Below, piece after piece: positions 23,601 to 56,799 of a stretch of 64,000 nt of DNA. Origin of the DNA: Candidatus Bathyarchaeota archaeon (lineage in GTDB: Archaea; Thermoproteota; Bathyarchaeia; 40CM-2-53-6; RBG-13-38-9); the NCBI GenBank assembly GCA_963807605.1, contig CAWECG010000004.1:416001-480000 (forward strand), given 5' to 3'. Made by a program: the position numbers and the translations under genes. Every line of letters starts with the position of its first letter. Positions within the stretch are counted from its first letter, which is position 1. The notes under the pieces were generated by a model. It was not told the DNA's origin and ran no database searches. It saw nothing but the letters and a program-made list of their open reading frames with translations.

Positions 23601-23696
23601 GGGCCCGTAGTCTAGTCAGGATCAAGACGCTGAAGCAAACGCTGCGTAAGCCTGCGAAGCCGGAGATCCGGGGTTCAAGTCCCCGCGGGCCCGCCA
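23601..23696 (+). tRNA. tRNA-Arg(GCG) with 17-nt non-canonical intron at position 29/30 (23633-23649)
   Basis: Acceptor GGGCCCG/CGGGCCC; D stem GTCT/AGAC; T arm CGGGG-TTCAAGT-CCCCG; CCA encoded; removing the intron gives anticodon stem CTGGC/GCCGG with loop CT-GCG-AA; BHB helix ACGC/GCGT with TGA and AAG bulges. Confidence 0.92.
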
Positions 23697-23743: not shown

Positions 23744-25270
23744 TTGAGCCACTTTACCTTGAAACCAGTCAAGAAATACGCTCATCTGCTCAAGGATGAA
23801 GATGTACGTCGCTGGCTTGAAAATCTGGAACGTGGAAGCCCAATAACGGCCGAGGTTGCCTGGAGAAGAATTGGGCGAGCATGCGAACTACTCAACACAA
23901 CCCCACAACAGATGGTAGAGTCTGCAAAGAAAAACCTGAATCAATTACAAGACTCACTCGCAGACATGGTTGCGGATCTCGAGAACCAGAAGAAGGCCCC
24001 AAGCTACATCCTAGGAATCCTGAAGGCAGCAAAGTCCTGGCTCAAATACAACAACATCACCATGACAAGAACGATAAAGGTCAGCAACGCAAGCGCTACT
24101 CCAACCGTCGATGACGAACAGGTCCCAACCAAGGAGGAGCTAGCCAGGATATTGCATGCCTCTCCACCGAGAATAAAGGTTGCCGAGGTTTTGATGGCAT
24201 TCGCAGACCTCAGACCCGAAACCATAGGAAACCACAACGGAAGCGACGGACTAACCATTGGCGACTTGCCCGAACTCAAGATCGAGAATAACCAGATATC
24301 TTTTACGAAGATGCCTACCATGCTTGTGGTCAGACGACCACTCAGCAAGACTAGAAAGAAATACTTCACCTTCCTCTCAAAGGAAGGATGTGACATCCTC
24401 AAGGAATACCTTGAACAACGCCTACGCGCCGGCGAGAAACTGACTCCCGACACTCCATTAATCGGCTATGAAAAACCCGGCAACGTGAAGAACCGGTTCT
24501 CATCAACCAGAAGAATAGGATACTTGATCAGAAACTATATGCGAGCAGCAGGAGTCCACAAGAGACCCTACGTGCTGCGAGCCTACGCAGAGACACAGCT
24601 GATCATAGTTGAAGGAAAGGGAAAGATCAGCCACCCCTACTTACAGTTCATAGCAGGACACAAAGGCGACATCGAAGCCACCTACAGCACAAACAAGGGA
24701 AGACTCTCCCCAGACATGATAGCAGACATGCGATCGCAATATCAAGCATGCGAACCCTTCCTGAATACAACAGCCACAATCTCGGATCAAAGCGACGTCG
24801 TCAAACAGACAAAGCTTGAAGTCTTGAAATCCCTCGCCAGAAGCATGGGAATAGACGTCAAAGACATCACACTAAACAAAGCAACAATGCTGAAGAGAGA
24901 ACTGACCATAGAAGAAGAACTTGAACTATACGAAGACAACCTCAAAAACCTCACAGAAAGACCAGCACCCATACCTGAAGACGAAGAACACAGATACAAG
25001 AGCAAACTCGTCACAGAAGACAAGCTGGAAAAGTACCTGAATAACGGATGGGAAATGGTCCAGATCATAAACAGCAAAATACTCATACGCAGAAGACTCC
25101 CCACTCCAGAAACAAAAGAAAAACAGGAAACAATAGAATCTTACCTCGAAGCAGAAGAGAAGAAAGCACGAAAGCCTCACACCGAGGCTGAAGAGGAAAC
25201 TGAAGTAAAACTCACAAGAGAAACCAAGAAAGCCTTAGCAGGACTCAGCGAACTAGCGGACAAGAGGTAG
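23744..25270 (+). CDS. Tyrosine recombinase/integrase with C-terminal extension
   Basis: Catalytic R (DLRPE), K (SKT), YxxR (PYVLR, in place of HxxR), H (AGH), Y (EATY); starts 47 bp after the tRNA. Confidence 0.88.
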   Translation: MSHFTLKPVKKYAHLLKDEDVRRWLENLERGSPITAEVAWRRIGRACELLNTTPQQMVESAKKNLNQLQDSLADMVADLENQKKAPSYILGILKAAKSWLKYNNITMTRTIKVSNASATPTVDDEQVPTKEELARILHASPPRIKVAEVLMAFADLRPETIGNHNGSDGLTIGDLPELKIENNQISFTKMPTMLVVRRPLSKTRKKYFTFLSKEGCDILKEYLEQRLRAGEKLTPDTPLIGYEKPGNVKNRFSSTRRIGYLIRNYMRAAGVHKRPYVLRAYAETQLIIVEGKGKISHPYLQFIAGHKGDIEATYSTNKGRLSPDMIADMRSQYQACEPFLNTTATISDQSDVVKQTKLEVLKSLARSMGIDVKDITLNKATMLKRELTIEEELELYEDNLKNLTERPAPIPEDEEHRYKSKLVTEDKLEKYLNNGWEMVQIINSKILIRRRLPTPETKEKQETIESYLEAEEKKARKPHTEAEEETEVKLTRETKKALAGLSELADKR

Positions 25271-34218: not shown

Positions 34219-34232
34219 CGAATGATGCATTC

Positions 34233-35173: not shown

Positions 35174-35212
35174 ACTCGTGGGCATGGGAAGTATGTATTT
35201 GGTGGTAAACTG

Positions 35213-35867
35213 GTGGGCGAATCCCACTCCACGCACTATAGTACTGGCAAATTAGTATCCATCAACCGCGCAAGTGTGGCGATGTCATAGTATGGTTCAT
35301 TCCAATCCCTGCAATCGGACGCTTCTCGCTCTGATCCCTCGAGGCACTCGAAAATAATCAGGAGTATGTGTGCCCTAGCGGGTTAGAGCACGCGAATTTG
35401 AACTGATGGTTCTTCTTGTGCGTCTTTTGGTGAGGACACAAAAACACGAATCGTATAATAATGTGTGATATCTAAGGAATGCTGATCCTCTGTTAGAAAC
35501 TAGTGTAGTTTAGGGAATCGAACTTTATCCATACCCCGCCCGGAGCTTCATGTTACTAATTAGAGGCTTTTCCGCTCAATTATTATTCATAGTTGTTCCA
35601 GTGAGAAAGAATTTAAGCCACAAAACCGTACTATCCAGAAGAGATGCTTCTGGAATGGGTTTTTCCATGAAAAAAGAGCGGGATTTAGACCCTAATGGGT
35701 TTAAAACCCACCCGGTCCACTATTGCTTGGCTCATTTGACTCTCATGACTTCCGCCCACTATTCAAGCCCTAACCAAAGTGAATTGGCCTAACAGCTGAA
35801 CCGTTCAGATCAGTCAATCTTGATGGTATCTGACCCTTTATTTAGTCCAACACCCGCGGGTCCATTA
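35213..35867 (+). repeat. Cluster of tRNA 3'-end fragments (35213-35238 Leu-like, 35534-35550 Thr-like, 35696-35722 Ala-like, 35845-35867 degenerate)
   Basis: T-arm plus acceptor-strand patterns ending in CCA-like triplets; isotype labels inferred. Confidence 0.6.
35721..35860 (+). repeat. 140-bp direct repeat Y, copy 1
   Basis: 9 mismatches to 49698-49837 by manual count. Confidence 0.95.
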
Positions 35868-36657: not shown

Positions 36658-36696
36658 GCATTAGCGTGTACACAAAAAACGATCAGATCACGCTAA

Positions 36697-37626: not shown

Positions 37627-37631
37627 TTCCT

Positions 37632-38294: not shown

Positions 38295-38305
38295 TTTCAC
38301 AGGCC

Positions 38306-39515: not shown

Positions 39516-39889
39516 TTCTTATCATCTTTCTTCCGTTTTCTGGATTTGCGGAGCTTTCCCACTCGCTTTCTCATCTCGTCAAGTCTCTGTGCATAATCAA
39601 CGGATCCCAAGTGGGCAAACGCCTCTCTGTGTACGGTAGCGAATATGAATCCTTCATCTCTGAATCTGATTTTTGCTCCTCTTTCGAATTTCTCCGCGAT
39701 GATGCAGAGAGCAAGTCGGTGATCTGGAAAATCAAGGTTTAGATGCGTCAAGGTGTCAACTGGGCCGGACATGTCGTCTATCTGTTTTGCTCTGACTGTT
39801 ACATGCCGTATTCTGGTTGGATCCAAAACGTAGAGACTTTCGTTAACATTGTTGCTCTCGACGCAGTGGCGCACTAACGAGGTTTTCAC
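39512..39889 (-). CDS. Hypothetical protein within urease operon
   Basis: 4-nt overlaps with both neighbours. Confidence 0.65.
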   Translation of the reverse strand: MKTSLVRHCVESNNVNESLYVLDPTRIRHVTVRAKQIDDMSGPVDTLTHLNLDFPDHRLALCIIAEKFERGAKIRFRDEGFIFATVHREAFAHLGSVDYAQRLDEMRKRVGKLRKSRKRKKDDKK

Positions 39890-41461
39890 CTCTTGATTTC
39901 AGAGACGGCTTGAGTGGTAAGTTCTTCTGCAGCCAGGTTCCTGTCAATCCGTAGAACGGATTTGGCTATTTCTCCTGCAGACTCTAGAGCAGTTGTCTTG
40001 ACTAGAAGAGGGTCAATAATGCCTCTTTTCCACATGTCTATTAATTCGCCGCTCTCTATGTCTATGCCAAAACCTTCTGGCGATGCTTTCACAGCCATGA
40101 CTTTTTCAAGCCCGTTGAAACCGGCATTTGTCAGTATCTGACGCATTATGCTCTCAAGTGCCGCAATCACGACATCGAGGCCAATACTTTCCAAACCTTT
40201 CAAGTTAACATTCTTGACTTTTTTTATTAAGTGAAGTTCTGCAGCGCCACCACCGGCGACAACTCCTGTGTTCAGAGCTGCTTCAGCAGCATTGACGCCA
40301 TCTCTAGTGGCCCTCCACCTTTCAAGGGATGTTTCTTTTGTTGCCCCAGATATGATGATGGTAACTATGTTCTTGCCTGACCCATTTTCTATGTATACTA
40401 CACCTTCCTTCTCGTCCTCATAGATGCGGTCTGCTTCCCCCAGGATGTCGGGTTGCTTTAGGTCTTCAAGCATTCTTACCAGCTTTGCGCGTGTATGCCG
40501 TGCTAGGTGTTCTATCTCATCTGTGGAAATTCGGATTGCGAACACTTTGTTCTTGATAAGCAAATTCTCAATGAACTCATCCACCTCGGGAGATGCGATA
40601 AGAAGGGTGTTGACGCCGGTGGCTAGGATTTCATTCACTATTTCTTTCGATTTTCTGATTCGGTCATTTTCCATAGCGGCTATATCGTCATATTTGTTGC
40701 TGTCTTTCATCCATTGTTCTTTGATAGGCTTCAGGTCAAGCTTGCACAACATTATCTTTGGAGTTTTGACCTCCTTGGGCATATCAACGTCCATTCTCTT
40801 TCTTTCCAAGACGATGCCATCGACGACTCTATCCTTCATATTCAGTTTCCTAATGACCATTACAGCCTTGTCGAAGTCATATTTCCCGTCAAATAATGCG
40901 TTATCACCAATAGACCTTATTGCGGATATTACTAAGGGCGCGAGTATTTGTCCATCCAGTTTTGATGCTAAGGAAGTTCTAACAACTTGTTCGAGCTCAA
41001 TTTCATTTATCTTGATTCTTTTTTGCTTCTTCTTCCATCATCTTACAGGCATACTTTACTCCGCTATCTATGCCGCCGACGATCTTTGATGGATGGACCC
41101 CCAGTTCTTTTATGAATTTTTTACCTTCCTTAATCATTTCTGCGGCCATGACTACTGCCGTAGTGGTGCCATCGCCGACCATTTCTTCCTGTCTTTCCGC
41201 TATCTCCACAATCATCCTTGCTACAGGATGTATCGTCTTCAGGGAGAGAAGGATTGTTACTCCATCATTAGTGACGTGTCTGTTCAAAGTCTGATCTATG
41301 AGGAGTTTATCCAGTCCTTTGGGGCCCAAAGTTGTCCTAACTGTTTCAGCTACAGCTACTACGGCATTGCAGTTGGACTCTAGAGCGTCCATCTCCACAT
41401 TTTGAGCCACAGGCCGCCAAACACTATGACCTGGACTAGACACCATTATCCCCCTTTCCAT
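39886..41461 (-). pseudogene. Thermosome-like (Cpn60/TCP-1) chaperonin split by a +1 indel at T6 (41019-41024)
   Basis: TTLGPKGLDK, TNDGVTIL, GDGTTT, GGGAAE, IIDP..VK; removing one base joins both ORFs into ~524 aa. Confidence 0.85.
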
Positions 41462-41524
41462 TAGGAAATAGGTACTTAAAAAAAGGAGTGCGCGCGTAGG
41501 CGCGCATATGTTTGATCGGGTATG

Positions 41525-43252
41525 TCACGCCATGAAGTACCTTTGGGCCAAGGCTAGCTCTTTCGCCGGTTCTACTGTAGCAATCTCTCCGTCAAGTCTT
41601 ACCTCGTAGGTTTCAGGGTCTACTGTTATCTTGGGAGTACTATCGTTCCACACCATGTTCTTCTTGCCTATGTTCCGGCAGTTCTTTACTGGCAATATGA
41701 CCTTTTCGAGTCCTAACTTTTGAGGCACTCCAAGCTCTGCGGCTGCTTTTGATATGAATGTGAAGCTAGTTTTCTTTACTGCCCGACCGAGTGCACCGAA
41801 CATTGGTCTGTAGTAAACCGGCTCCGGAGTTGGTAGGGACGCATTCGGATCTCCCATTATAGACCAAGCTATGAATCCTCCCTTGAAGATCATCTTTGGT
41901 TTCGCTGCAAAGAAGGGCGCCTGATACATTACTATATCTGCGTACTTACCGACTTCAAGGGAGCCGAGATATTCTGCAACACCATGAGTGATTGCTGGGT
42001 TTATTGTTGTCTTTGCGATGTACCGCTTAGCTCTAAAGTTGTCGTTCTCCGGGGAGTCTTCCTTCAGCTTGCCGGTCATCTTTTTCATCTTGTCCGCAGT
42101 CTGCCAGCAACGGATTACTACCTCCCCAATCCTACCCATAGCTTGACTGTCTGCGGAGTACATGCTCAAGACACCTTTATCATGCAGAACATCCTCTGCA
42201 GCGATTGTTTCGGCTCTGATTCTGGATTCTGCAAAGGCGACATCCTCTGATACCGCAGGATTCAGGTGATGACAGAACATCAACATGTCCAGATGCTCAT
42301 CCACTGTATTGACAGTATAAGGTCTTGTCGGGTTTGTTGAAGAAGGAAGTACGTTTGGCTCTCCTGCTATCTTCATAATATCGGGCGCGTGACCTCCGCC
42401 AGCTCCCTCTGTGTGGTAGGTGTGTATTGTTCTACCGTCGATCGCATTTATCGTGTCCTCGACGTAACCGCATTCGTTAATCGAGTCGGTGTGTATCGCC
42501 ACTTGTGTATCCGTGAGGTCCGCTGCTCTAAGCGAAGCGTCTATAACTGCGGCGGTTGTCCCCCAATCCTCATGGTCTTTAAGACCGCATGCTCCAGCCT
42601 CTATCTGTTCCAGCTGAGTGGCGAGTGTTGGGTGTGAGTCGTTGCCTTTGCCCAGGAAGCCCCAGTTCATCGGTGTATCCTCTACAGCTTCCAACATTCT
42701 ATGCATGTTAAAGACGCCAGGAGTACATGTAGTAGCGTTGGTACCGTCTGCAGGCCCGGTTCCTCCACCGATCATATTGCATATTCCATTACTTATCGCG
42801 TCGACGTATTGCTGTGGGCTTATCATGTGAACGTGTGTATCAAAATGACCTGGAGTGCAGATTGTATGTTCCCCGGCGGTGGCTTCCGTACATGCCGAGA
42901 CTACCATGTGAGGATCAACGCCATCCATTACATTGGGATTGCCGCCTTTTCCAATCCCTGCTATTTTGCCGTCTTTTATCCCGATATCGGCCTTCAGGAT
43001 TCCCAGGATAGGATCTAGTATGATGGAATTGGTGATTATGAAATCCAAAGCCCCATTCGCATTTGTAACTCCTGGCGTTTGGCCTAGTCCATCTCTTATT
43101 GTCTTGCCTCCACCGAAGACCTCCTCGTCTCCGTGGGTTATCAGATCTTTCTCTATCTCGATGAGTAGGTCTGTGTCACCTAGTCTTACTTTATCTCCGG
43201 TTGTGGGCCCATAAAGATCACTGTACTGTTTTCTTGTTAGTTTCAAAACCAT
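41525..43252 (-). CDS. ureC: Urease alpha subunit
   Basis: [39 protein letters not shown]. Confidence 0.97.
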
Positions 43253-43258
43253 TTTTCT

Positions 43259-43675
43259 TCACGCTCCTTTGAAGTCTAGTTTCTTCGCCTTTTCAAGAGC
43301 GGCGGACTTGACTGTACTTGACAGTAGACTGCCCATCGTTAGTGCATTGAATCCGTAGACAACCTTCTTGCCGCCTAATTCGCAGATCTCAACTTCTTTT
43401 GAGTCACCCGGCTCAAACCTTACAGCTGTTCCTGCCGGGATATTCAGTCTATACCCGAATGTTTGTCCTCTTGGGAAATCGAGTTTCTTGTTTACCTCGA
43501 AGAAATGCGTGTGGGAGCCTATCTGTATTGGCCTGTCACCGGTGTTCTTCACCGTAATCTTAATGGTCTTTCTATCTTTGTTGCAGATGACTTCTCCGGG
43601 AGCTAGAACGTATTCGCCCGGTAGGACGTGTGTTGGGTGTTCCTCTTTCCTTTTTTCTTCTTTCTGCTTACTCAG
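43259..43675 (-). CDS. ureB: Urease beta subunit (probable CTG start)
   Basis: LPGEY..NTGDRPIQIGSHTHFFEVN..PAGTAVRFEPG; conserved PGEY lies upstream of the ORF-track GTG. Confidence 0.92.
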   Translation of the reverse strand: MSKQKEEKRKEEHPTHVLPGEYVLAPGEVICNKDRKTIKITVKNTGDRPIQIGSHTHFFEVNKKLDFPRGQTFGYRLNIPAGTAVRFEPGDSKEVEICELGGKKVVYGFNALTMGSLLSSTVKSAALEKAKKLDFKGA

Positions 43676-43686
43676 ATTTCATCACC

Positions 43687-43989
43687 TTACTGAATAGGAT
43701 CGTGTACGGTCACAAGTTTGGTGCCGTCTGGGAACGTGCCTTCTACTTGTACAGTGTGTATTAGCTCAGAGACACCGGACATTACATCGCCTCTTCTTAG
43801 TACGGTTCTTGCGGATTGCATCAGTTCTGCAACGCCTTTTCCCTCACGAGCGCCCTCGACTATGTAGCTTGCAATGAAAGCGACCGCTTCCGGGTGATTC
43901 AGCTTTATTCCTTTCTTCTTGCGTTGTTCTGCTATTTGTGCCGCTGTCCAAATCATCATTTTTTCAATTTCTCTTGGAGCCAACATCAT
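43687..43989 (-). CDS. ureA: Urease gamma subunit
   Basis: [23 protein letters not shown]. Confidence 0.97.
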
Positions 43990-44138
43990 TTTATTTTCTC
44001 TCTCCTAATTTTATTTTCTCTCTCCTATTTTCATCCTGACTTTTACGCTCACCTTTCATTTGGAAATTTCTTCTCGATTCGAAATCATCTCAGTATTCTT
44101 TTGTAGTTTGTATCCATCTCCTCATGGCGCAGCACTTG

Positions 44139-45194
44139 TCAGGGCCTAGCCCATCCGATGCCAGCTGGGATATTCAACGCGAACGGAGCTGCTAGCAGAA
44201 ATGCCCACGCCGTAAAGACGAACGGTCCAGTCAAAGCTGGAAGCCCCCATTTGCTAAAGAAGTTCTGGAAGGCAGGCATCGTAACCAAGCTGCAGACTAT
44301 TGTTGCAAATACCGCGTACAGGAAGGTTTGCCAAGTCAACGGCAGGAAACTTGTAAGCGCGATCATGACCAGGACTTGGTTGAATCCGTGTACGCCAACC
44401 CTAATTTCTGAAGTCGGAAGCCTCGCCATTATTGCCAGAGCTGCTCCTATCGCGGATCCTATCAGTGCCATCAAACCAGCCAACCAAAGCGTAGATGTCG
44501 GATCCCACCCACTAGTGAAGGCATTCGTGAATAATCGGTCTGGAGGAAAGAGCTCGAAAGAAAGGGTTAGGCCCACAACCCAGAATATTCCCGTCTTCCA
44601 ATTTTCAACAAATGTGACTTGGGAAACCCCATTGAGAACTGCCTTCGTGAATTCTTTTGCCGTCCATTTGAATCCAGCTATCACTGTATCAGCTGGCGCA
44701 CTTGGCCATATGTCATGGCCGTATCTTTTGGTTGCATACATTAGAAGCCATGTTGAGAATATGAAAGATGAAGTAAAGCCCGGAATAGCCCAACCTTTTC
44801 CACCTAAGACGAACCAATCACCCATGACGTGAGCCATCGTCATCCAGACTACCGCAGTGAATGCAGCGCCAAATAATGAAAGTACAAGTGTTGCTCTGTT
44901 GGTCTTTGCGAATGGCCCAGACCAGAATGCCATCCCAGTCAAGATGGAGTTAAATCCGAAAAGACCAAAAGTAACCAGACCATAGGGAGCACCCAATATT
45001 AACGCAACTGCTGCGCCTATTAATCCAGAAACCACCATCATTACACCTGCTTTTCGAGAGGCGATCAAAACTCCAATTAGGATGAGCAGACCAGTAAGTG
45101 CTGAACTAATCAGAGGTACTTCTGAAATCCCATTGAAGAGAATGTAGATGAAATCCAATATTGGATTTCCAGTTACAAAACCTGGTGCCGACAA
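44139..45194 (-). CDS. Urea transporter (UT family)
   Basis: Internally duplicated halves NGISEV/NGVSQV, GLFGFN/GVHGFN, LPALTGPF; adjacent to ureA. Confidence 0.85.
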   Translation of the reverse strand: MSAPGFVTGNPILDFIYILFNGISEVPLISSALTGLLILIGVLIASRKAGVMMVVSGLIGAAVALILGAPYGLVTFGLFGFNSILTGMAFWSGPFAKTNRATLVLSLFGAAFTAVVWMTMAHVMGDWFVLGGKGWAIPGFTSSFIFSTWLLMYATKRYGHDIWPSAPADTVIAGFKWTAKEFTKAVLNGVSQVTFVENWKTGIFWVVGLTLSFELFPPDRLFTNAFTSGWDPTSTLWLAGLMALIGSAIGAALAIMARLPTSEIRVGVHGFNQVLVMIALTSFLPLTWQTFLYAVFATIVCSLVTMPAFQNFFSKWGLPALTGPFVFTAWAFLLAAPFALNIPAGIGWARP

Positions 45195-45875
45195 GTATCC
45201 ATAACCTCCATTGGATTACCCGTACTCAGTTAGATCTTAACACAATACTCTAGTTTTGCCTGGTAGCGCCTTAGCTCGGTGAACCCCACCGGCAGCGCTG
45301 CGCCAGTCCAGTTAATGAGCAGATTATTCATATAAGATAAATGGAAGAAAATCGATACGAATGTCTAAAATTGATAGAAAATCCTATCATTTGTTTAGAC
45401 TAGCATCAGATTTTCTGACCTCCTCGCCTATTGCTACTCGAACGCGTTATGTCAAACGCGCTCGAAACAAGAAATACCTTAAGCACCTAACTTGTTGAGC
45501 AAGACAGGAAGACTGGTTTCATCTGTCATACCCCGTACTAATCTAAATCCTTCAACAATCAAAGACTGGAGGAGATCGTCGGATGCACTAATACGTAAGC
45601 AAACACCCTAAGGAAGTAGCCATTGACGACTACCATTACAAAAATCTGCATAGAGACGCACACACAAATTCATCACACTGGGAAAAAGAACTTCAGGTCT
45701 GAGATGCAGTTAGCGCAGGCTTCATAGATCCTTTTCGACATTCAGACGGTTATGGGTGTGAGATGTTGACGAATCCTATTGGTAGTAGAACCAACCGTTT
45801 TCCTGGCATGGCTTGGATTGTTGTAGAATAAGGCACTTCTGAACGATAAAGGGCTCTAATTCACACTTAGATGAG

Positions 45876-45896
45876 CAAGTCCCGGCGGCCGCACCA
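45876..45896 (+). repeat. tRNA-Gly-like 3' fragment CAAGTCCCGGCGGCCGCACCA
   Basis: 1 mismatch to 49667-49687. Confidence 0.85.
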
Positions 45897-46041
45897 CTCT
45901 AGCAATGAATAGATACAACTTGCCCCCATACTTGCTATTGCTTGCAGGTTTTCATATCGTTCAGAATGGAGAGTTGGACTATGGGTGGCTCTGTAGGCAA
46001 ATTAGCGCGCTTGTCCTGTCAGTTTTTTTGTCAGTCCCACT

Positions 46042-46650
46042 TCAATTTTTTGTGATGTCAAGAAAATATTCATAGATTCTCAAATCTTCAGTGAGCTCAG
46101 GGTGGAAACAGGTTCCTATCATGTTGCCCTGTTGGACAGCAACCGTTCTGCCCTCTAGTTTGCTGAGTACCTTTACGCCTGAGCCAATTTCGACGACTGT
46201 TGGAGCTCTTATGAAGACTCCTCTAAATCTCTCTCCCAAGATGGGAATGTCTAGGTCTGCCTCGAATGATTCACGTTGCCTTCCGAAGGCATTTCTCTCA
46301 ACCGTTACATCCATCAACCCTAAAGTCGTTTGAGCAACCTCCCCCACATTCCGATCGTGGACTTTCTTAGCCAGCATTATTAGCCCTGCGCATGTGCCCA
46401 TTATGGGCATGTCTTCATACGCGCGTTTCTGGAGGGTTTTGGTCACATCGTTAAGGTTGGCGAGTATGCCTATGACTGTGCTCTCTCCGCCTGGAATTAT
46501 TAGTGCGTCTGCTCTTTGAATATCGGTGGATCCTTTGACTGTTTCAACTATACCTTTGAATCCTTTTCGATCCATCGCGTGCCTAGCCGCTTTTACGTGT
46601 TCTTCGATGTCGCCTTGAAATCCTAAGATGCCTACAGTTATATCGCTCAA
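46042..46650 (-). CDS. pdxT: PLP synthase glutaminase subunit
   Basis: PGGEST, GTCAG, RNAFGRQ, FIRAP, FHPEL. Confidence 0.95.
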
Positions 46651-47612
46651 CCACTGCCACGCTCCTGCATTCTCAACTCCAGAGTCTGGAGGTCCATACC
46701 GATCATGGACTTCTTCTCGTCGACCATGCTCTGGGCCTCAGCAACTTTGGATGGATCGTCATGGAATGTTACGGCCAAGACTATTGAGCGTGCACGCTCA
46801 GCAGGATCCTCCGATTTGAATATTCCTGAGCCAACGAAGACCCCGTCACATCCCAGATTCATCATTAAAGCAGCGTCTGCAGGTGTAGCAATCCCTCCGG
46901 CTGCGAAATTAACCACAGGTAACCTTCCAAGCCTTCCAGTCTCGTTCACTAGCTCGTAGGAAGCCCTCAACTCCCTCGCGATCTTAATCAGTTCCTGCGT
47001 GTCTTGTACCTCGTAGATAGATTTGATCCGTCTGATCTCGTTGTTAACAATCCTAGTATGTTTGACAGCTTCTGCAACATTTCCAGTGCCAGGTTCACCT
47101 TTTATCCTGATCATGGCTGCACCTTCTTCTATCCGACGAAATGCTTCTCCAAGATCTCTGGCACCGCACACAAACGGCGTTGTGAAATCCCATTTCCATA
47201 TGTGCCTCTCCTCATCTGCTGGGGTTAAAACCTCGGATTCGTCTATCATATCCACGCCAGCAGTCTCTAAGATCTTTGCTTCCCAAGTGTGGCCTATGCG
47301 GCATTTCGCCATAACCGGGATCGTAACGTTATCCAATATCTCCTTGATCGCGTTGAGGCTGGCGGTTCTGGCTACACCTCCAGATTTCCTTACATCGTAG
47401 GGTAGCTTATCCAGAACCATGACGGCTACCGCCCCAGCCTTCTCAGCAATCCTAGCCTGTTCCACATTTGTGACATCCATTATCACACCGTGCTTAAGCA
47501 TATGGGCGAAGCCACGTTTCAGAAGGGTGCTCCCTTGAACGGTATCAGCCCCCTCGATCCTTGCGTTGTGTACTCCTTTAGGCTGATGTATAGTTCCAGC
47601 TATTGAAATCAT
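46647..47612 (-). CDS. pdxS: PLP synthase lyase subunit
   Basis: [34 protein letters not shown]. Confidence 0.96.
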
Positions 47613-47636
47613 GGTATATAAGAGGGGGAAGAGATT

Positions 47637-47674
47637 ATATAAGTTTGAACCTATATATCAGTTCGGACTTATAT
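47637..47674. promoter_or_regulatory. 38-bp imperfect palindrome overlapping the divergent pdxS / thrC-padR promoter region
   Basis: ATATAAGTTTGAAC-N10-GTTCGGACTTATAT (12/14 arm match); TTATATAA at 47635-47642. Confidence 0.7.
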
Positions 47675-49139
47675 GGTTCTGCTATGTTCAGATTGTGGCG
47701 TCAATTACGCGGACTCTGAGGCGCTCAGGGTCTGCCGAAGATGCGGGCAGCCTCTATCGGTAACCTATGACTACGACAAGATCAGGGAGACACTTAGCAT
47801 CAAAGAGATCTCCAAGAGACCTTTTCGGCTATGGAGGTATCTCGAACTGCTGCCCATCACAGAGGAGGCTCATGTGATCTCACTGGGCGAGGGCGGAACC
47901 TACCTGCATAGATGCGATAGGCTCGCCAAATCATTGAGGTTAAAGAAGCTATACTTGAAAAATGAGACCACCAACCCTACTGGCTCATTTATGGATCGGG
48001 GCGTAACGGTCACTGTCACCAAGGTTAAACAAACAGGAATCAGAACCGTCTGCTGTGCCCCAACAGGGAATCTTGGCTCCTCCCTAGCAGCCTACGCAGC
48101 CAAAGCAGATCTAGAATGTAGAGTCTTCATCTCACATGAGGTGGACCTTGGTAAGCTCTACCAGATGATAGCCTTCGGTGCCGATGTCCAGACCGCCAGA
48201 GACATAGACGATGCATATCAAAAGGCCACTAGGATCGCTGATAAGAGCTACTTGGTAACCCCAGAAGATCCATACCTCCTCGAGGGAGAGAAGACTATAG
48301 GATATGAAATATGTGAACAACTCGATTGGCACACACCAGACTTGATAGTAGTTCCAATGGGAAGCGGCGGAAACCTCTCAATGATCTGGAAGGGAATTCA
48401 GGAATTCCTCCAAATCGGCTTAATCCGGAATAGTCATGCAGCCATGGTCGGCATTCAGAGCTCAAGCCACTCACCGATAGTAGACGCCTTCAAGGGCGCT
48501 CGTAAACTAGAAAAATCCAAGGGAGAAGGAAGATCTTTAGCTGTTGACATAGCTGTCAAGAATCCCGCTCTTGGAGACGCAGCCTTGAAGGTGATAGAGG
48601 CCTCAAAAGGCATAGCAACAAGCGTCTCCGACAACGAGATTCTAGAAGCAACACGATTACTTGCAAAGACAGAAGGGATCTTCGCCGAACCTGCTGCAGG
48701 CTCCACAATTGCCGGGCTTACGAAACTGGTAGAGTCTGGAGAGGTGGCCAGAGACCAAGAGGTCGTCTGCATAATAACAGGCTCAGGGCTCAAAGACCCT
48801 TACACCGCCCGTAAGTTTGCAGATGAAATGAAGCGTACTCGCAAACTCGTAAACAGTATCGACGAAGGTAGGGATGTCAGGCTCGGCGGTACAAAAATGA
48901 ACATCCTCAAGATCCTTCAGAATAGAGAACTTTATGGTTATGGCATATGGAAGGAGCTGTTAACTTATCATTCGAAAAAAGTCACCATGCCAACAGTGTA
49001 TCAACATCTACAAGAGATGGAGATGCGGGGATTGCTCAAACGTACAAGAAGAGAGGAATCAGTGGGAAGACCAGACCGCTGGTATTACATCCTAACAGAG
49101 AGGGGCAGGGAGGCTCTAAAAGCCTTCAGCAGACTATAG
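47673..49139 (+). CDS. Threonine-synthase-like fold-II domain (catalytic Lys replaced by Met) fused to C-terminal PadR-like wHTH
   Basis: SLGEGGT, NPTGSFMDRG (canonical SFKDRG), EGIFAEP, TGSGLKD; then ILKIL..YGYGIWKEL..PTVYQHL..LE..GLL..YYILTERGRE. Confidence 0.85.
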   Translation: MVLLCSDCGVNYADSEALRVCRRCGQPLSVTYDYDKIRETLSIKEISKRPFRLWRYLELLPITEEAHVISLGEGGTYLHRCDRLAKSLRLKKLYLKNETTNPTGSFMDRGVTVTVTKVKQTGIRTVCCAPTGNLGSSLAAYAAKADLECRVFISHEVDLGKLYQMIAFGADVQTARDIDDAYQKATRIADKSYLVTPEDPYLLEGEKTIGYEICEQLDWHTPDLIVVPMGSGGNLSMIWKGIQEFLQIGLIRNSHAAMVGIQSSSHSPIVDAFKGARKLEKSKGEGRSLAVDIAVKNPALGDAALKVIEASKGIATSVSDNEILEATRLLAKTEGIFAEPAAGSTIAGLTKLVESGEVARDQEVVCIITGSGLKDPYTARKFADEMKRTRKLVNSIDEGRDVRLGGTKMNILKILQNRELYGYGIWKELLTYHSKKVTMPTVYQHLQEMEMRGLLKRTRREESVGRPDRWYYILTERGREALKAFSRL

Positions 49140-49344
49140 CACCTGATCCAATAGAGAATATCGAGGGTCAGTATCACGTCGGGCCGCCCAAGGTCAGACA
49201 GCTCAGACTCAAATGTCGAATGTTATGTTATGAACCTCAATTTCAACCCAATTTCCTCAACAAAAATGCTCTGGGCCCGGTTCGAACATCAGAGGTATGA
49301 ACCCGCGTGAATTTTGAGCCCAAATCTAGCACCGTTAACGCATC

Positions 49345-49442
49345 GAATCCCGTCGGGCTCGCCAACAATAATCGATAAAAATTGTGGCATAATAACGGCG
49401 ATTGTGGTCTACAGGCAATTCAGGTATTCGCACCTAATAAGG
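49345..49442 (+). repeat. 98-bp direct repeat X, copy 1
   Basis: 11 mismatches to 56662-56759 by manual count. Confidence 0.95.
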
Positions 49443-49697
49443 GGTGCATACCGGCGGCTGCACCATTCTAGCGGTTCACAGTATCATCTGTAGACAAGAT
49501 TCCTGAACCTAAACAATTCGCCTTCGACACGGCTGTGAAAGTGTGAATCCCGCCCGGTCCACCATTCTGCACGTTCCGAATGAAAACGGTCTTTTTACGC
49601 ACTATCTTGGAGCTGTGGAAGAGCCACTTGCGAGAGGTAGATAGTTCTTATTCATATCTAGCTAATCAAATCCCGGCGGCCGCACCAATGATTTTTG

Positions 49698-49837
49698 TAT
49701 TGCTTGGTTCATTTGACTGTCATGACTTCCGCCCGCTATTCGAGCCCTAACCAAAGTGAATTGGCCTAAATGCTGAACCGTTCAGATCGGTCAATTTTGA
49801 TGGTATCTGACTCTTTATTTAGTCCAACACCCGCGGG
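49698..49837 (+). repeat. 140-bp direct repeat Y, copy 2
   Basis: Matches 35721-35860. Confidence 0.95.
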
Positions 49838-49854
49838 CCGGCAATTCTCAGTGC

Positions 49855-50700
49855 CTACGTGCTACCGTCTTCTGTTTCAGATCTTTTCGTATGCTGAAGG
49901 GTGGCCATCTTGAGGCGGGACGTCATTTTTCTCAGTTTCTCCGTTGTCCTAATGGGTGATCCATGATTCTGCTCAATCACTTTGACAAACACGCTTCCAA
50001 CGATAGCCCCATCAGCTCCAGCTGCCACAATCTCTCTGATCTGTTCAGGGGTTGATATTCCAAAGCCGGTTGCAAGTGGAATCTCGTCCCTTATGTAGGA
50101 ACGAAACTCCTTAACTAACCTCACAGTCGAATCTGGGAGCCTTCTCCTGGCTCCAGTTACACCAAAGAGTGAGACTAAGTATAGAAAACCTGATGTGTAT
50201 TTCAGGATTTCCTGCAGTCTTTCCGCTGTGGTGGAGGGTGCTGCGAGAAATATTGTGTCGATCTTGGCTTCATCAGCGATCCTCTTGTAAGTGTCTGCCT
50301 CTTCAAAGGGCAGATCAGGGATTACTATCCCGTCAACCCCATTCATCTTTGCTAGTTCCAAGAAATTCTTCAGTCCGCTTTTGTAGATTATGTTATAGTA
50401 GGTCAGAAGTACGACGGGGATCCTGTGTTTTTCCTTGATCTTCTTTACGATCTTCATGACCAGTGGGGGCTTGGTTCCGGCTTTCAATGCTCTGACTGTT
50501 GCAGCTTGAATCGTCGGCCCATCCGCAATTGGATCAGAGAATGGGATGCCAAGTTCAATTACGTCTGCACCTCCTTCAACTAGAGCATCCACAATTCTAG
50601 GAGTGAATTTTGGAGATGGATCGCCCGCGGTCACGTACGTGATCAGCGCGGCCTCATTCCTCTCGCTCAGATCTCTGAAGGTTTCTGCAATAATGGTCAA
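49855..50700 (-). CDS. trpA: Tryptophan synthase alpha
   Basis: [28 protein letters not shown]. Confidence 0.96.
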
Positions 50701-51896
50701 AGTCTTCGCCCCATTCTTCCAGCCACAACCTCCACATCCTTGTCACCTCTTCCTGAGATTGTGACCACGACACCTTCTTCGCTGTTCATCTTGGGTACTA
50801 TCTTCTTCATGTGTGCTAGCGCATGGCATGTCTCCAAAGCTGGAATAATCCCCTCTGTCCTGGAAAGCTCACAGAAGGCTTCCAGGGCCTCTTTGTCTGT
50901 GGCTGTGGCATACTCGACACGCCCTATACTGTGAAGATAGGAGTGTTCTGGGCCGACTGCTGGGTAGTCGAGGCCTGCAGAGACACTGTGGGTTGGCTGT
51001 ACCTGGCCATAGGCGTCTTGGAGAAGATAGGTTAGCATGCCATGGAATACCCCCTCTGACCCTGCACAGATTGAGGCTGCATGCTTTCCAGTCTTAATTC
51101 CTCTTCCTCCGGCCTCGACGCCATACATCTTTACGTTGTCATCATTAAGGAAGTGGTGGAATGTTCCTATGGCGTTGCTGCCGCCTCCAACGCATGCGAA
51201 GAGTGCGCTAGGTAACTTCTTCTCCTTCAGCAGGATCTGTTCCTTGATCTCCTTTCCAATGATACTCTGGAGGTCTCTTACGATCATTGGGTAGGGGTGA
51301 GGTCCTACCGCTGATCCAATCAAGTAGTATGTTGTCTGGGGGTTGGTCGTCCAGTCTCGGAGGGCCTCGTTTATCGCATCCTTCAGTGTCCTTGAACCCG
51401 AATCCACAGGGTGGACCTTCGCCCCGAGTAGCTCCATGCGGAAGACATTGAGCCTCTGCCTCTTCATATCCTCGGTTCCCATGTAGATCTCCGCATCCAG
51501 ACCTAGGGTAGCGCATGCTATCGCCGTGGCCACTCCATGCTGGCCTGCGCCGGTCTCCGCGATAACCCTCTTCTTGTTCATCCTCTTGGCCAGGAGAGCT
51601 TGACCTAGTGTGTTGTTGATCTTGTGGGCTCCTCCGTGAGCCAGATCTTCCCGTTTCAGATAGATCCTTGGGCCCCCGTACCTGCTGGATAGATTCTTGG
51701 CATAGTAGAGGGGTGTCGGTCTGCCAGCGAACTCTCTTAGATAATGGTCGAGCTGGTTCTTGAAATCAAGGTCCTCCTTGAAGCTAAGGTATGCATCTTC
51801 CAGCTCGCTGAGCACAGACATCAGAGTCTCAGGTACAAAGCGTCCTCCATACTTACCGAATTTGCCCTTGAACAAATTGGCCTGTTGCAGGTTCAA
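50697..51896 (-). CDS. trpB: Tryptophan synthase beta (TrpB1)
   Basis: [30 protein letters not shown]. Confidence 0.97.
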
Positions 51897-52537
51897 TATG
51901 CAGCCTCCCTAGCTTTCCTGATGAACTCGGTCATCTTCTCAGGATCCTTAACCCTAGGACGCACCTCGACCCCCGTTGAGACATCGACCCCGTATGGCCT
52001 AACCGTACTTATCGCGTGGCCGACATTCTCTGGAGTGAGCCCTCCGGCAAGAATCATGGGTGCCGGGTATATTGCGTCCCTGATTTTTCTGCTTAAACTC
52101 CAGTCGTGTACAAGGCCTGTCCCTCCACGACCAGTCTGATCATGGGTGTCTACCAATACGGCTTGAGAGAATCTCGAGTATGACAGAGCTTGTTCGATCG
52201 CATCAAGCGCTCCAACATCAACAGCTACTATTACCTTGACTCTTGATGCCAAACCATTCCGGCGATACGATTCAGAAGCCACTCCATGAAGTTGTAGGAA
52301 TTTTGGAGCCAGCTCTTGGCAGATCTCCGCGGTTCTTTTTATTCCGTTGAAGACCGTCACTACCACGCTGTCCACGTTGCTTGGCAATCGGTCTATCAGG
52401 TTCTTTGCTTCTCTGAAAGAGAGATTTCTCGGTGATGCGGCTATGTCGACAATGAATCCTATGGAATCAACACCGGCCTGGACAGCTATATCCAAATCTT
52501 CCTGTTGAGTTACTCCGCAGATCTTTACTTTCACCAT
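51893..52537 (-). CDS. trpF: Phosphoribosylanthranilate isomerase
   Basis: [30 protein letters not shown]. Confidence 0.95.
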
Positions 52538-52543
52538 CTGGAT

Positions 52544-53317
52544 CTATGCCTCCGCCAGCTCCCGGACTTTCTCTTCAGGGTTGAGAGCTGACATGATGGA
52601 TGATCCAACTAGGAAAGCACTCGCTCCACACTCTCTGAGGAAACGAACATGATCTCCGGTGTCGATTCCACTCTCACTCACGACAACATGGTTGCTTGGG
52701 TGGCGTGAACTCAATATCTTCCTTGTGACATCCAGATCTGTCTGCAGGGTCGAGAGATCTCGATTGTTTATTCCAATGAGGTCAGCCTCGGTGCTGAGAG
52801 CTCTTTCGAACTCTTCTGTGGTATGGGCCTCAAGCAGAATCTCCATACCTCTGTCATGCGCTAGATCTATCGTTCCTTCAAGATCGTTATCGCATAGGTT
52901 TCTCTCGAAGAGAGATTCGATCAGCAGTATCGCTTCAGCTCCGATCCTGGATGCGGCTTCAACCTGGATTGGATCGACGATTATGTCTTTCATGAGCCGC
53001 GGAAGGCCACATCTACGCGCGGTTATGAGGTATTCAGTTCTGCCTCTGAAGTGTTTCGGCTCGGTCAAGATCGATAAGCCGACTGCACCACCCAGTTTCA
53101 TCATCGACGCCAAAGCTTCAACGTTAATGTTCTGAGTGATGATCCCCTTCGAGGGTGAGGCGGGTTTGATCTCAGCTATTACTGGATTCCTCTTGCATTT
53201 GAGAATCGACTCTTTGAGCCCCATGCCGACTCTCTCATGAGATTGCTCAATATGATAGTAGCCTTCCGCAACGGTCTCTCTGGCATCCCTTGCCAGGATA
53301 TCTAGATAGTCACGCAG
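52544..53317 (-). CDS. trpC: Indole-3-glycerol phosphate synthase (probable CTG start)
   Basis: IAEIKPASPSKG, GINNRDL, SESGI; frame open upstream of ATG 53224 to CTG 53317. Confidence 0.93.
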   Translation of the reverse strand: MRDYLDILARDARETVAEGYYHIEQSHERVGMGLKESILKCKRNPVIAEIKPASPSKGIITQNINVEALASMMKLGGAVGLSILTEPKHFRGRTEYLITARRCGLPRLMKDIIVDPIQVEAASRIGAEAILLIESLFERNLCDNDLEGTIDLAHDRGMEILLEAHTTEEFERALSTEADLIGINNRDLSTLQTDLDVTRKILSSRHPSNHVVVSESGIDTGDHVRFLRECGASAFLVGSSIMSALNPEEKVRELAEA

Positions 53318-54368
53318 TTATCTCCAGCTCCTCAAGTCTCGACAGGTTGCCGCCAGTGAACTCGATCAGCGAGACGAGTTTTCCGTAAGCTGCACCGCTC
53401 TCAATTGACTGGGCAGCGAGCTCGAGGCCTTCTTCGAAGCTTTCTGCTTTCCCTCCGACTACGATGCCTGCGGCTGCATTGAGTAGTACTATGGCTTGCT
53501 TGGGATCCCTGTGGGTACAGTGGCCTCTCATAATCCTAAGAGTCGCCACCGCGCTCTCATGGGTAGTTGAGCATCGCAGCGCCTCGGGTTTGGCTTTCTC
53601 TATACCAAAGTCCTCTGGCTCGATCGTGAAGCTGCATATCTCATCCTCTCTTAACCAAGAGATCTTGGTCCCTCCGACTGTGGAGACCTCGTCTAAGCCG
53701 TCGAGGCCGTGCACAACCATTGCTTGCTTGACACCAAGGTTTGAAAGTACGCTCGCTAGTGGTTCGGTCAAGGATTCTTGGTATACACCCAGAAGCTGGG
53801 CTGTTACGTTGGCCGGATTGGTCAGAGGACCCAGAATGTTGAACACTGTTCTGATCCCGATCTGACTCCTAGGGTTGACTGCATACTTCATTGCTGGGTG
53901 AAATGCTGGAGCGAACATGAATCCAATCCCAACCTCCTCTATTGCTTTCTCCACCGTCTCTGTTGGTATGTTGAGCCTGAGCCCCAGGGTCTCCAGAACG
54001 TCGGCGCTTCCACATCGGCTTGTCACAGACCGGTTCCCATGCTTTGCAACAGGTATGCCTGCGCCAGCGATGACAAAGGCGGACACTGTACTGATGTTGA
54101 ATGTCTTGACCTGATCGCCGCCTGTTCCACATGTGTCGACTAGGTTGCCTGCAACTTCAGGGTTAATCCGGTGGCAACAGCTTCTCATTACTCTTGCAAG
54201 TGATGTGATCTCGTCTACGGTCTCACCCTTCATCCTGAGGGCTGTCAGGAATGCGGCGATCTGTGCGTCTGTGGCTTTGCCCTCCATGATCTCCTGCATG
54301 ACCTCCCGTGCCTCTTTCTGTGTCAGGTCTCTTCGCTCAACGAGTTTTGCAATGGCTTCCTTAATCGT
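53310..54368 (-). CDS. trpD: Anthranilate phosphoribosyltransferase (probable ACG start)
   Basis: DTCGTGGD, NIST, KHGNR; upstream in-frame IKEAIAKLVERRDLT with GGAGGT SD. Confidence 0.93.
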   Translation of the reverse strand, partial: TIKEAIAKLVERRDLTQKEAREVMQEIMEGKATDAQIAAFLTALRMKGETVDEITSLARVMRSCCHRINPEVAGNLVDTCGTGGDQVKTFNISTVSAFVIAGAGIPVAKHGNRSVTSRCGSADVLETLGLRLNIPTETVEKAIEEVGIGFMFAPAFHPAMKYAVNPRSQIGIRTVFNILGPLTNPANVTAQLLGVYQESLTEPLASVLSNLGVKQAMVVHGLDGLDEVSTVGGTKISWLREDEICSFTIEPEDFGIEKAKPEALRCSTTHESAVATLRIMRGHCTHRDPKQAIVLLNAAAGIVVGGKAESFEEGLELAAQSIESGAAYGKLVSLIEFTGGNLSRLEELEITA

Positions 54369-54954
54369 CTCGGTAACCTCCGTCTAGGAAGTTTCTGAGA
54401 ATTCTTTTTCCTTGGTTGGTCAGGATAGACTCCGGATGGAACTGTAGGCCCTCGATTGGGTACTTGGTGTGGCGAATACCCATTATTTCGCAATCATCAA
54501 GAGAGTAGGCTGTTGCCTTCAAACAGTCTGGGAGCGAGAACAGATCAGCTACGAGGGAGTGGTATCTGGTGGCCTCAAGTGGATTTGGTGTGTCTCGGAA
54601 GATCCCTTTTCCGTCATGTTTTATCAGGCTGGTCTTGCCGTGCATCAGCCTCTGTGCTCTGATGATCTTTCCTCCAAAGGCATGTACGATCCCTTGATGC
54701 CCAAGGCAGATACCTAGTGTTGGTATGTGTCTGCTTAGATCTCTCAGGATGGCCAAGCAGTTGCCGAAGTATCGGGTTTCTGCTGGTGTTCCAGGTCCAG
54801 GGGAGAGAATCACTCTGTCGGGGTTGAGTCGTCTTGCCTCTCCTAGAGTCACCGTGTTGTTTCTGTGGACAACTGGTGTTCCGCCAAGTTCACCGACATA
54901 CTGTGCGATGTTGTATACGAATGAGTCATAGTTGTCTATTATCAGGACTTTCAA
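54361..54954 (-). CDS. trpG: Anthranilate synthase component II
   Basis: IDNYDSF, SPGPG, GICLGHQ, QFHPES. Confidence 0.95.
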   Translation of the reverse strand: MKVLIIDNYDSFVYNIAQYVGELGGTPVVHRNNTVTLGEARRLNPDRVILSPGPGTPAETRYFGNCLAILRDLSRHIPTLGICLGHQGIVHAFGGKIIRAQRLMHGKTSLIKHDGKGIFRDTPNPLEATRYHSLVADLFSLPDCLKATAYSLDDCEIMGIRHTKYPIEGLQFHPESILTNQGKRILRNFLDGGYRDD

Positions 54955-56373
54955 ATCATTTCACCCGCCTTCTCCAAGGCCTTCATGAGAGCCGCGGCTT
55001 TTTGTTCTGTTTCAAACCATTCTTTCTCGGGGTCTGAGTCAGCCACTATCCCTGCGCCTACTTGGATTGAGGCTTTATTCTGATGGGTTGTCAGGGTACG
55101 GATGGTTATGGCAAAGTCTGCGTTTCCGTTGTTCGAGAAGTATCCGACGGCGCCCGCGTATGGTCCTCTTCTTGTGGGTTCAAGTTCCTCAATTATCTCC
55201 ATGGCTCTGACTTTCGGTGCTCCTGAGACAGTTCCGGCGGGGAGCATGGCTTTGAGTGCGTCAAAGCAATCCATGTCTGGACGTATCTTTCCGACGACTC
55301 TGGAGACGATGTGTTGGACATGACTGTATTGGTGTACAGTCATGAATTCAGGTGTGTGGACTGACCCAAACTCAGCTATTCTGCCGATGTCGTTCCGTGC
55401 CAGGTCTACAAGCATCACATGTTCAGCCCGCTCCTTCGGGTCTGAAAGCAACTCTTCAGCCAAGATCTGGTTCTTGGCTTGATCGTCGGTTCTTGGTCTG
55501 GTCCCGGCTATCGGATAGGTCTCCACGAGACCATTTTCAACTCTCACAAGCATCTCAGGACTTGAACCTACGACCTGTCTTTCTCCCATTTTGAGAAAAT
55601 ACATGTATGGGGATGGGTTGATGTTTCTCAACGTTCTGTAGAAGTTGATGAGGCTGCCCTCGAAGTTGAAGTTATAACGTTTTGAAAGGACTGCCTGGAA
55701 GATGTCTCCCGAAGAGATGTAGTTCTTGGCTTTCAAAACAGCCTCTTGAAAGTCGTCTTTTGAAGTATTCGATGTTGGGGTGGTGTATCTGAAGGGTTCT
55801 GGATCGGTGATGGCCTCTTGGATTCTGCTTTTGATCTCTGCCAATCGATCCCTGTTTTGAAAGTAGTAGTATGCTGTTCTGTTGATGTGATCGAAGACTA
55901 TCCCATCGTCAAAGAACGCCATCTCGAGATCTGGGAACTTGAGATCATCGGTGGCGGATTCCGGAATCTTTTCCCAGTACCTTACCGCATCATACGAGAT
56001 GTATCCTACGGCACCACCTGCGAGACGAAACTGGTCGAATGTTAAATGATTCCTCTGAATCTCACTTCGCATGATGTCAAGTGGATTGTGCGTTTCTTGG
56101 CATTCGTCTCCTGATGTCATGCTAGTGGTTCTTGCCACATGTCCTTTGACAGAGATCACTAGGTGTGGGTCAAACCCTATGAACGAGAACTTCGCCAGTT
56201 TTTCCGGGCCTTCAACTGACTCTAGAAGATATGTGTACCCGCTGTCTCCCTCAAGTCTTGCAAAGATATCTGCTGGCGTGTCGGTGTAGGGGATCTCTTC
56301 AAGATTGACCTTAGGCGATTTTCTGGAAGTTGGCTCCTCTAGTCTTGAGGTTTGTCCAAAGGCGATACCCCAT
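54951..56373 (-). CDS. trpE: Anthranilate synthase component I; N-terminus lacks an in-frame canonical start
   Basis: NPSPYM, SSPE, PAGTVSGAPK; conserved YLLES..FIGFDP lies upstream of the ORF-track start; nearest ATG (56373) is one base out of frame. Confidence 0.9.
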
Positions 56374-56410: not shown

Positions 56411-56660
56411 ACACGAGTTCTATTTAAGGTTAGTGAGTACACTATTGTACATCTATATGCCTCACAACTTGAGAAGACCGACCATTATGTGCTTGACAGG
56501 ACAGAACACGAACACTGAAGCCTGTCCTCACGGTCCAATCGCACGCTGCTGAGAAAATCCGGCATAGTCAGAAAGTTCCTTCGCGGAGCTTGAAAGTGTA
56601 AGTTCGAATTATAGGAGAAAAAAATCAATTTTGAGCTCGGTCATGGCAACTATAACGTTA

Positions 56661-56782
56661 CGAACCCCGTCGGGCCCGCCAACGGTAATCGATACAACTT
56701 GCGGCATAATAACGGTCATTGTGGTCTGTAGGCAATTCAGGTATTCGCACCTAATAAGGCTCGAGTACCCGCGGGCCCGCCA
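56661..56782 (+). repeat. Repeat X copy 2 between two tRNA 3' fragments (56661-56681; 56758-56782 = candidate attR)
   Basis: CGAACCCCGTCGGGCCCGCCA and GGCTCGAGTACCCGCGGGCCCGCCA. Confidence 0.88.
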
Positions 56783-56799
56783 TGATGACGTTCCTAGTG

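Follow-up and report, generated by a model that had tools for sequence, protein, structure and literature searches.

The gene-free array of tRNA 3' tails described here is probably composed of compacted attR-type element ends, which would have been built up by tandem accretion of integrating elements at non-cognate tails and then deprived of the element interiors. The array lies in a 64,000-nucleotide stretch of DNA (referred to in its entirety as the window) that represents C4:416001-480000 of a 2.65-Mb genome in five contigs (G000) from a sediment archaeon of the Bathyarchaeia. The window presents, in order, a tRNA-Arg with an integrase (23.6-25.3 kb), a first stack of tails (35.2-35.9 kb; listed in Table 1 as the second stack), a urease block, a site at 45896, pdxST-thrC, the array, the trp operon and a pair of tails at 56681/56782, and the att features across it share one orientation.

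Six same-strand tRNA 3' tails are located within 680 gene-free bases, between the stop codons of thrC (49139) and trpA (49855). They end at positions 49190, 49364, 49465, 49564, 49687 and 49844, with periods of 101, 99, 123 and 157 between the last five, and each was scored by its matches over 21 bases to the tRNA 3' ends of the same genome (Table 1). CCA is kept in five of the six tails, the outer units are the most decayed (15/21 and 16/21) and the nearest tRNA gene is 25 kb away. Tails for which Val or Ala came into question are Ala on the basis of the anticodon. A weight matrix of tRNA ends produced 74 matches genome-wide at a score of at least 17 (real tRNA genes counted), as opposed to approximately one in shuffled sequence, while in a separate cluster scan of the genome the six-tail array was the largest of 14 clusters and shuffles generated one or two. 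A preceding sequence-only reading had placed tails at the last five of these positions and had pointed to the pair at 56681/56782, spaced by 101 bp, and both are borne out by matching to tRNA ends (Lys and Arg, 19/21 each, for the pair). It had additionally suspected degenerate copies near 49190 and 49280: the former is a Lys-like tail, whereas at the latter position a decayed arm carries a truncated tail, and the next arm begins behind it with its first box. The spacers are non-coding, as that reading had proposed, with 8-18 stops in each frame and translated matches limited to other arm copies and the overlapping end of thrC; they also differ from each other inside the array, but they are not unique, since they recur elsewhere in the genome and in other genomes.

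Table 1. Coordinates of the att-related features and adjoining gene blocks of the window.
Feature	Position	Strand	Remarks
tRNA-Arg(GCG), intact, intron-containing; attL of the window's island	23601..23696	+	read as Leu if introns are ignored
Tyrosine integrase	23744..25270	+	R157, K200, Y277-x-x-R, H306, Y314
Second stack: arm B + Leu tail, arm C + Glu tail, arm D + Ala tail, arm H + decayed Arg tail	35200..35867	+	
Lone site between urease block and pdxT: arm E + Gly tail + partly inverted flank	45836..45925	+	
pdxT-pdxS / thrC block, left of array	46042..49139	.	syntenic in five family members
Degenerate Lys-like tail	49170..49190	+	15/21; outermost, most decayed; no arm recognised before tail
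Decayed family-A arm (~49228-49271) + truncated tail (49272-49279)	49228..49279	+	from alignment
Unit 1: family-A arm + tRNA-Lys(CTT) tail; putative attR-type	49280..49364	+	tail 19/21; arm: inverted match to flank of tRNA-Lys(TTT) C3:421410, 20/28
Unit 2: 80-bp spacer with family-G arm at its end, Gly tail; chimeric site	49365..49465	+	tail 17/21; arm: inverted match to flank of tRNA-Arg(TCT) C1:9384, 19/28
Unit 3: 78-bp spacer with family-F arm at its end, Ala tail	49466..49564	+	tail 19/21; spacer 75/78 in G008
Unit 4: 102-bp spacer with family-E arm at its end, Gly tail	49565..49687	+	tail 20/21; arm E before Gly tails at 45896 and C3:555799
Unit 5: 12-bp flank, 124-bp segment ending in family-H arm, decayed Arg tail	49688..49844	+	tail 16/21, CCA lost; arm: inverted match to flank of window tRNA-Arg(GCG), 17/28
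trp operon (trpE...trpA), integrase-free; 3' end abuts array; bracketed by att sites	49855..56159	-	
Diverged second copy: arm A + Lys tail + 80-bp spacer, ending in Arg tail	56627..56783	+	

These features also bear on two readings of the array as something other than a stack of sites. An assembly artefact, or alternatively a single decayed gene in pieces, is scarcely credible although the genome is metagenome-derived, given that the units are non-identical and thus do not represent an expanded repeat, that one of them recurs in another genome (G008), with an independent metagenome contig from JGI (L093) containing the G008 stack as well, and that the stops in all frames and a protein similarity confined to other arm copies argue against a decayed gene. 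A CRISPR array was considered and rejected, as the repeats differ by isotype, the spacers (78-153 bp) recur as arm families, no phage match was obtained and there is no tandem period. Searches of viral contigs returned nothing for arm A or an integrase, and those of phage records returned no match.

The 3' parts of the spacers are recurring arms of 40-120 bp that precede orphan tails. Arm A occurs approximately 25 times in G000 and its relatives, arm G is also present at 56782, at C2:53712 and in G001, arm F is found in five other genomes (G008, G303, G319, G293 and G037), and further copies of arms E (45896 and C3:555799) and H (35867 and C3:162541) exist in the same genome. Each arm was reverse-complemented and compared with the flank behind every tRNA end in the collected loci, using a best-of-157 null. 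Arms A, G and H displayed inverted matches to such flanks (Table 1), as did arm D of the second stack to a tRNA-Met flank (18-20/28), against a null median of 13-14 (p ≤ 0.02). In all four cases a constant 24 bp separates the inverted halves and an integrase gene is located directly behind the matched tRNA; furthermore, the matches of G, H and D were repeated with independent integrase loci. Because their arms match inverted flanks of integrase-adjacent tRNAs, units 1, 2 and 5 are predicted to be attR-type right ends of tRNA-targeting tyrosine-integrase elements. Units 3 and 4 look to be of the same build, while for arms E and F no integrase-adjacent partner was present among the collected loci. 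Element-like combinations occur elsewhere in the genome: tRNA-Lys C3:421410 with its integrase versus arm A and the same tail at C3:356470, tRNA-Met C4:65889 with its integrase versus arm D and a tail at C4:89485, and tRNA-Leu C3:770909 with its integrase versus the arm-B tails. A full-length parent element was found for none of the array units, and neither an excised circle nor an empty site was observed.

The suggestion of the sequence-only reading that the array consists of stacked empty cassettes recording past integrations is thus supported, as its spacers carry integrase attachment arms. The same reading had also entertained a transcript processed into small RNAs with a cut behind each CCA, in which case the tails would act as tRNA-like processing signals. 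While CCA is present in five of six tails and thrC is oriented so as to read into the array, tRNA-processing enzymes need the elbow, which is missing since the T-stem cannot form in any tail (0-3 of 5 pairs). Additionally, folding is no better than that of shuffles (z = -0.7), there is no Rfam match and the spacers are explained as DNA-binding arms. This proposal is consequently unsupported and is regarded as most improbable; in all likelihood the array is neither a small-RNA nor a CRISPR-like locus.

Alignment of the integrase family revealed the tyrosine-recombinase catalytic residues R-K-(H/Y)xxR-(H/W)-Y, and a profile of the family matches the archaeal XerC-like/XerA structures 4A8E (1.8e-10) and 5HXY. 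As a single sequence, the window integrase had no match in Pfam, PHROGs or the PDB, and a single-protein scan of the genome contigs with the integrase found nothing, while PF00589 was matched by two family members. The family is present in 28 of the 105 genomes of the order, with a tRNA end shortly upstream at 25 of 29 integrase loci and closely similar flanks, and the tRNAs it targets across the order are those for Lys, Arg, Ala, Gly, Val and Met. No integrase homologue was detected from 25270 to 56782 of the window. In three other genomes (G002, L035; G171, L053; G128, L094), an integrase or its remnant starts straight behind a bare tail or a stack, which would represent accretion caught in place.

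Several further observations were made on the tRNA genes and att sites of this genome. The tRNA-Arg(GCG) at 23601-23696 contains a non-canonical intron, and a prediction that disregards introns miscalls it as tRNA-Leu(CAA). Multiple introns are present in many of the tRNAs of G000, some of them inside the T loop (e.g. C1:69922, C3:909029, C4:91990, C4:224105 and C4:321632). A classical same-target tandem is located at C1:475480-490645, where tRNA-Leu is followed by four arm-B/Leu tails with cargo between them, and at two places (C3:347001/347029 and C3:765425/765526) a pair of oppositely oriented att sites, spaced by 30-100 bp, may represent inversion end points. A short transposase-like helix-turn-helix remnant lies inside the window's island at 33975-34230, beside low-complexity A-rich DNA.

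The arms and tails of the array are encountered in different combinations. The 80-bp spacer of unit 2 recurs at 56682-56761 (69/80), where an Arg tail (ending at 56782) takes the place of the Gly tail ending at 49465, and the unusual bases with which its tail starts are found again in G003, there in front of an Ala tail, which places a switch near tail position 9. More generally, where the same arm stands before different tails, the switch is near tail position 7-10: arm D is combined with Met or Ala tails, arm C with Leu or Glu, and arm A with Lys, Ala, Gly or Arg. The 78-bp spacer of unit 3 is 96% identical (75/78) in G008, which belongs to a different genus (lysRS DNA 75% identical) and in which this spacer has other neighbours, with similarity that begins and stops inside tails. 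The 124-bp segment of unit 5 is repeated at 35723-35846 (115/124), where the tail in front of it is another one; the start junction of this unit lies 12 bp off the core and looks like a deletion. In G001, one identical flank is present behind both tRNA-Arg and a Lys tail. The units thus appear to be re-used with different neighbours, switching mostly inside tails, and it is from the chimeric arm/tail junctions that integrase-catalysed recombination at the array sites may be inferred.

Spacer length is in some cases retained as the sequence diverges. The length of 78 bp is conserved in three genomes, being found in G303 at only 48/78 identity, and that of 61 bp recurs in two genomes at 38/61 identity. 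This homologous 61-bp spacer (38/61) lies directly behind an intact tRNA-Lys in G171 (L053, 1516-1598) or tRNA-Arg in G299 (L052, 598-516) and ends in a second site that keeps its T-stem (Val or Ala), which in G171 is followed by an integrase. Of all the sites, this double one is the most promising candidate for a double attP or for a landing pad carried by an element.

A search of related archaea, as had been advised in the sequence-only reading, identified compact stacks or pairs at several other places in G000 and in ten further genomes (G002, G008, G037, G128, G171, G176, G212, G299, G303 and G319), and a pattern built from the window repeats had matches in Bathyarchaeia records only. Strict two-tail patterns were detected in 8 and 7 of 105 genomes, although such patterns miss the window array itself owing to tail mismatches. 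Order and content differ in every stack. Periods cluster at approximately 65-175 bp, and few tails are 200-1500 bp apart. Neighbouring tails are of the same acceptor class in 3 of 30 pairs as opposed to an expected 7.7 (p = 0.02; 0.02-0.06 by other definitions), in a hand-curated list in which some units are shared and pairs are not independent; the excess of unlike neighbours is therefore no more than suggestive. Where genes lie between the tails, likeness is frequent (7 of 20, mostly Leu). The attP-like symmetry of junctions averaged 7.6/25 in stacks, versus 7.9 for lone tails and 6.2 for random sequence, and the idea that each junction constitutes a complete attP was thereby ruled out. The array may conceivably be a bank of landing pads, as the sequence-only reading had proposed: the stack appears re-used as a recombination point, but several of its sites are decayed and its junctions are no more attP-like than lone tails.

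The trp operon is an integrase-free segment bounded by att sites, which are represented by a 157-bp direct repeat of 78% identity (49310-49466 and 56627-56783). In G001 (L034, C324 467-6727), a divergent trp operon is likewise bracketed by arm and tail sites. This operon is mosaic, with trpE/G/D/C being 69-77% identical to the window copy, while trpB is 52% and trpA, with two stops, 40% identical. A search for trpA in G002 and G008, which by lysRS are the nearest among four genomes, found none. A urease cluster with a urea transporter occupies 36100-45200, between the first stack and the 45896 site, and ureC/urease was not found in 15 other family genomes; an Rfam match to 5_ureB_sRNA (45.5 bits) at 42804-43102, antisense within ureC, probably reflects coding similarity. 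On the other side of the 45896 site, the pdxST-thrC block is family-typical and not demonstrably foreign. The notion of a foreign thrC (45% identity to relatives) was dropped, as thrC-pdxS-pdxT is syntenic in five family genomes. The threonine synthase (47673-49139) is fused to a C-terminal helix-turn-helix-like extension (PRK05638 type) and is approximately 45% identical to its syntenic orthologues, the adjacent pdxS being 76-80% identical.

From the arms, the integrases and the chimeric junctions, a course of tandem accretion and decay may be reconstructed, within which the order of docking, the deletions and the survivorship of units are conjectural. Strand exchange would occur in a short T-arm segment common to many tRNAs and, since this segment is shared, an incoming element could dock at a resident tail of another isotype (assuming such a crossover and a tolerance of non-cognate tails), an event that would be harmless at a spare tail and damaging at a real tRNA. 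Repeated docking would generate a composite island, and deletion of interiors would leave a short flank plus the arm and tail of the next element. Like neighbours would be lost by cognate excision or short-repeat deletion, and mixed neighbours would persist because those of the same type had been removed. The stack would ride on the end of the integrase-free trp block and be cut and re-joined at tails, which would explain why sub-arrays are common to loci and genera. Accretion has its difficulties: random deletion poorly explains the presence of a 40-120 bp arm and little else in every main unit, or the periods of ~65-175 bp and the recurring 78-bp and 61-bp spacer lengths, while the start junction of unit 5 is not at a core and arms E and F are without an integrase link.

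Accretion leaves unexplained why arms are so tightly retained and why certain spacer lengths recur, and this keeps alive a rival reading, to which we assign a minor but real share of the probability. According to this, the stack is a selected multi-specificity adaptor, i.e. an integrase-free cassette that is equipped at one end with a number of landing pads or att half-sites, which any of several resident or incoming integrases would excise, or dock beside, thus carrying the cassette to different tRNA genes, while selection would trim the spacers to a functional minimum. Arms are kept in all five main units, and divergence of the sequence has left spacer lengths unchanged (78 bp across three genomes, 61 bp across two). 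The 78-bp spacer reaches 96% identity between genera that share 75% identity in lysRS DNA, and stacks are positioned at the ends of both the trp and urease blocks; the bracketed trp operon of G001, together with the second site with its T-stem 61 bp behind an intact tRNA in G171 and G299, points in the same direction. Conversely, several tails are decayed (one is without CCA), as are the outer sites, stack order and content are never conserved, strict two-tail patterns are confined to 8 and 7 of 105 genomes, and stack junctions are not complete attP sites. The difference in acceptor class between neighbours (3/30 alike versus 7.7 expected, p = 0.02) would also be in keeping with an adaptor, but this excess is modest (p 0.02-0.06), was derived from dependent, hand-curated pairs and is also predicted by survivorship. 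The broader proposition that metabolic cassettes without an integrase in this order carry selected 'key rings', in which landing pads and att half-sites suited to several tRNA-specific integrases would be compactly lined up, is offered tentatively and is rather unlikely to be correct. It is just as doubtful whether any integrase that happens to be present could mobilise such a cassette or be recruited by it, with modules of ~100 bp being exchanged between genera.

The array shows how whole operons (for tryptophan synthesis and urease) can become bracketed by recombination sites in Bathyarchaeia. In addition, the catalogue of arm/tail chimeras within one genome indicates where crossover is likely to occur and suggests that this uncharacterised integrase family is not strict in its choice of target; enzymes with a tolerance for several tRNA ends would be useful tools. 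Should the stacks prove to be selected adaptors, passive cassettes would have a means, so far undescribed, of sharing many integrases, and if they are scars, they would still provide a readable record of integration history.

A family-2 casposon of Aciduliprofundum boonei targets the 3' end of tRNA-Pro, its casposase reading a TCAAATC motif, and tandem insertions are known (PMC6614799). As the genome studied here encodes two Cas1-like frames, one of 407 aa at C3:803636 and the other partial, the array might have been built by a Cas1-type casposase from casposon end pieces with 14-bp target duplications. The array resembles the A. boonei target in consisting of tRNA 3' ends, but lacks both the 14-bp duplication and the terminal inverted repeats: matches of tails to tRNAs extend to as many as 21 bases, 14-bp windows of neighbours agree at only 4-10 positions, and spacer ends pair at 5-8/15. 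Furthermore, the casposon-associated repeat is absent (the best match, 19/28, being on the Lys tail itself) and the arms map to tyrosine-integrase attL flanks. A casposase origin is thus largely refuted by these comparisons and would be very surprising. The two Cas1-like frames (C3:803636-804391 and C3:1057686-1058027) are each near a copy of a tRNA-tail-like repeat distinct from those of the array, of which there are about a dozen strict copies (e.g. C3:805421, C3:1061304 and window 26244-26264, the last beside an arm-C/Leu site at window 26138).

Integron cassette arrays and pdif modules contain integrase-free gene blocks that are bounded by recombination sites and reshuffled. The window is somewhat similar in having att-bounded integrase-free blocks with signs of reshuffling at the sites, but unlike in integrons the array sites are tRNA-derived and belong to several integrases, and attI, an attC bottom-strand hairpin and IntI are apparently lacking. 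Structure in the array, as judged by folding, was not above that of shuffles, and the integrase profile is closest to XerA/XerC, with IntI4 reached only at E = 0.2.

Closer parallels exist among tRNA-targeting elements. Archaeal tyrosine integrases of this kind are associated with a duplicated tRNA 3' fragment of ~20 bp, an integrase beside the intact tRNA and target switching among tRNAs within a family (PMC8371274, PMC6563490, PMC9897764), and arrays at re-used sites are known from the integrated elements of Thaumarchaeota (PMC6563490). The window system shares the ~20 bp duplication, the integrase beside an intact tRNA, the switching of targets within a family and the re-used-site arrays, but differs from the attL/attR sites described in its inverted arms of ~28 bp around a 24-bp centre, in an integrase family mostly missed by Pfam, and in its gene-free mixed stacks; no description of such arms, of this integrase family or of gene-free, mixed-target att stacks was found in the open literature searched. 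In CIMEs (Streptococcus ICESt1/ICESt3 and IME_Sag2603_tRNAlys), decayed elements keep their att sites, at which new elements integrate, and this accretion, the occurrence of which after decay is established, leads to chimeric junctions and composite islands with integrase-free cargo (PMC5704250). The array, with its att-bounded integrase-free block and chimeric junctions, is akin to these and works like accretion. CIME sites derive from one target gene, which canonically heads the tandem, and they enclose genes, whereas the array comprises five to seven gene-free sites of four tRNA types, 80-175 bp apart, in an archaeon, with the nearest tRNA gene 25 kb off. Elements are known to stack at attachment sites, and the array is probably an unusually compact form of this in which the targets are mixed.
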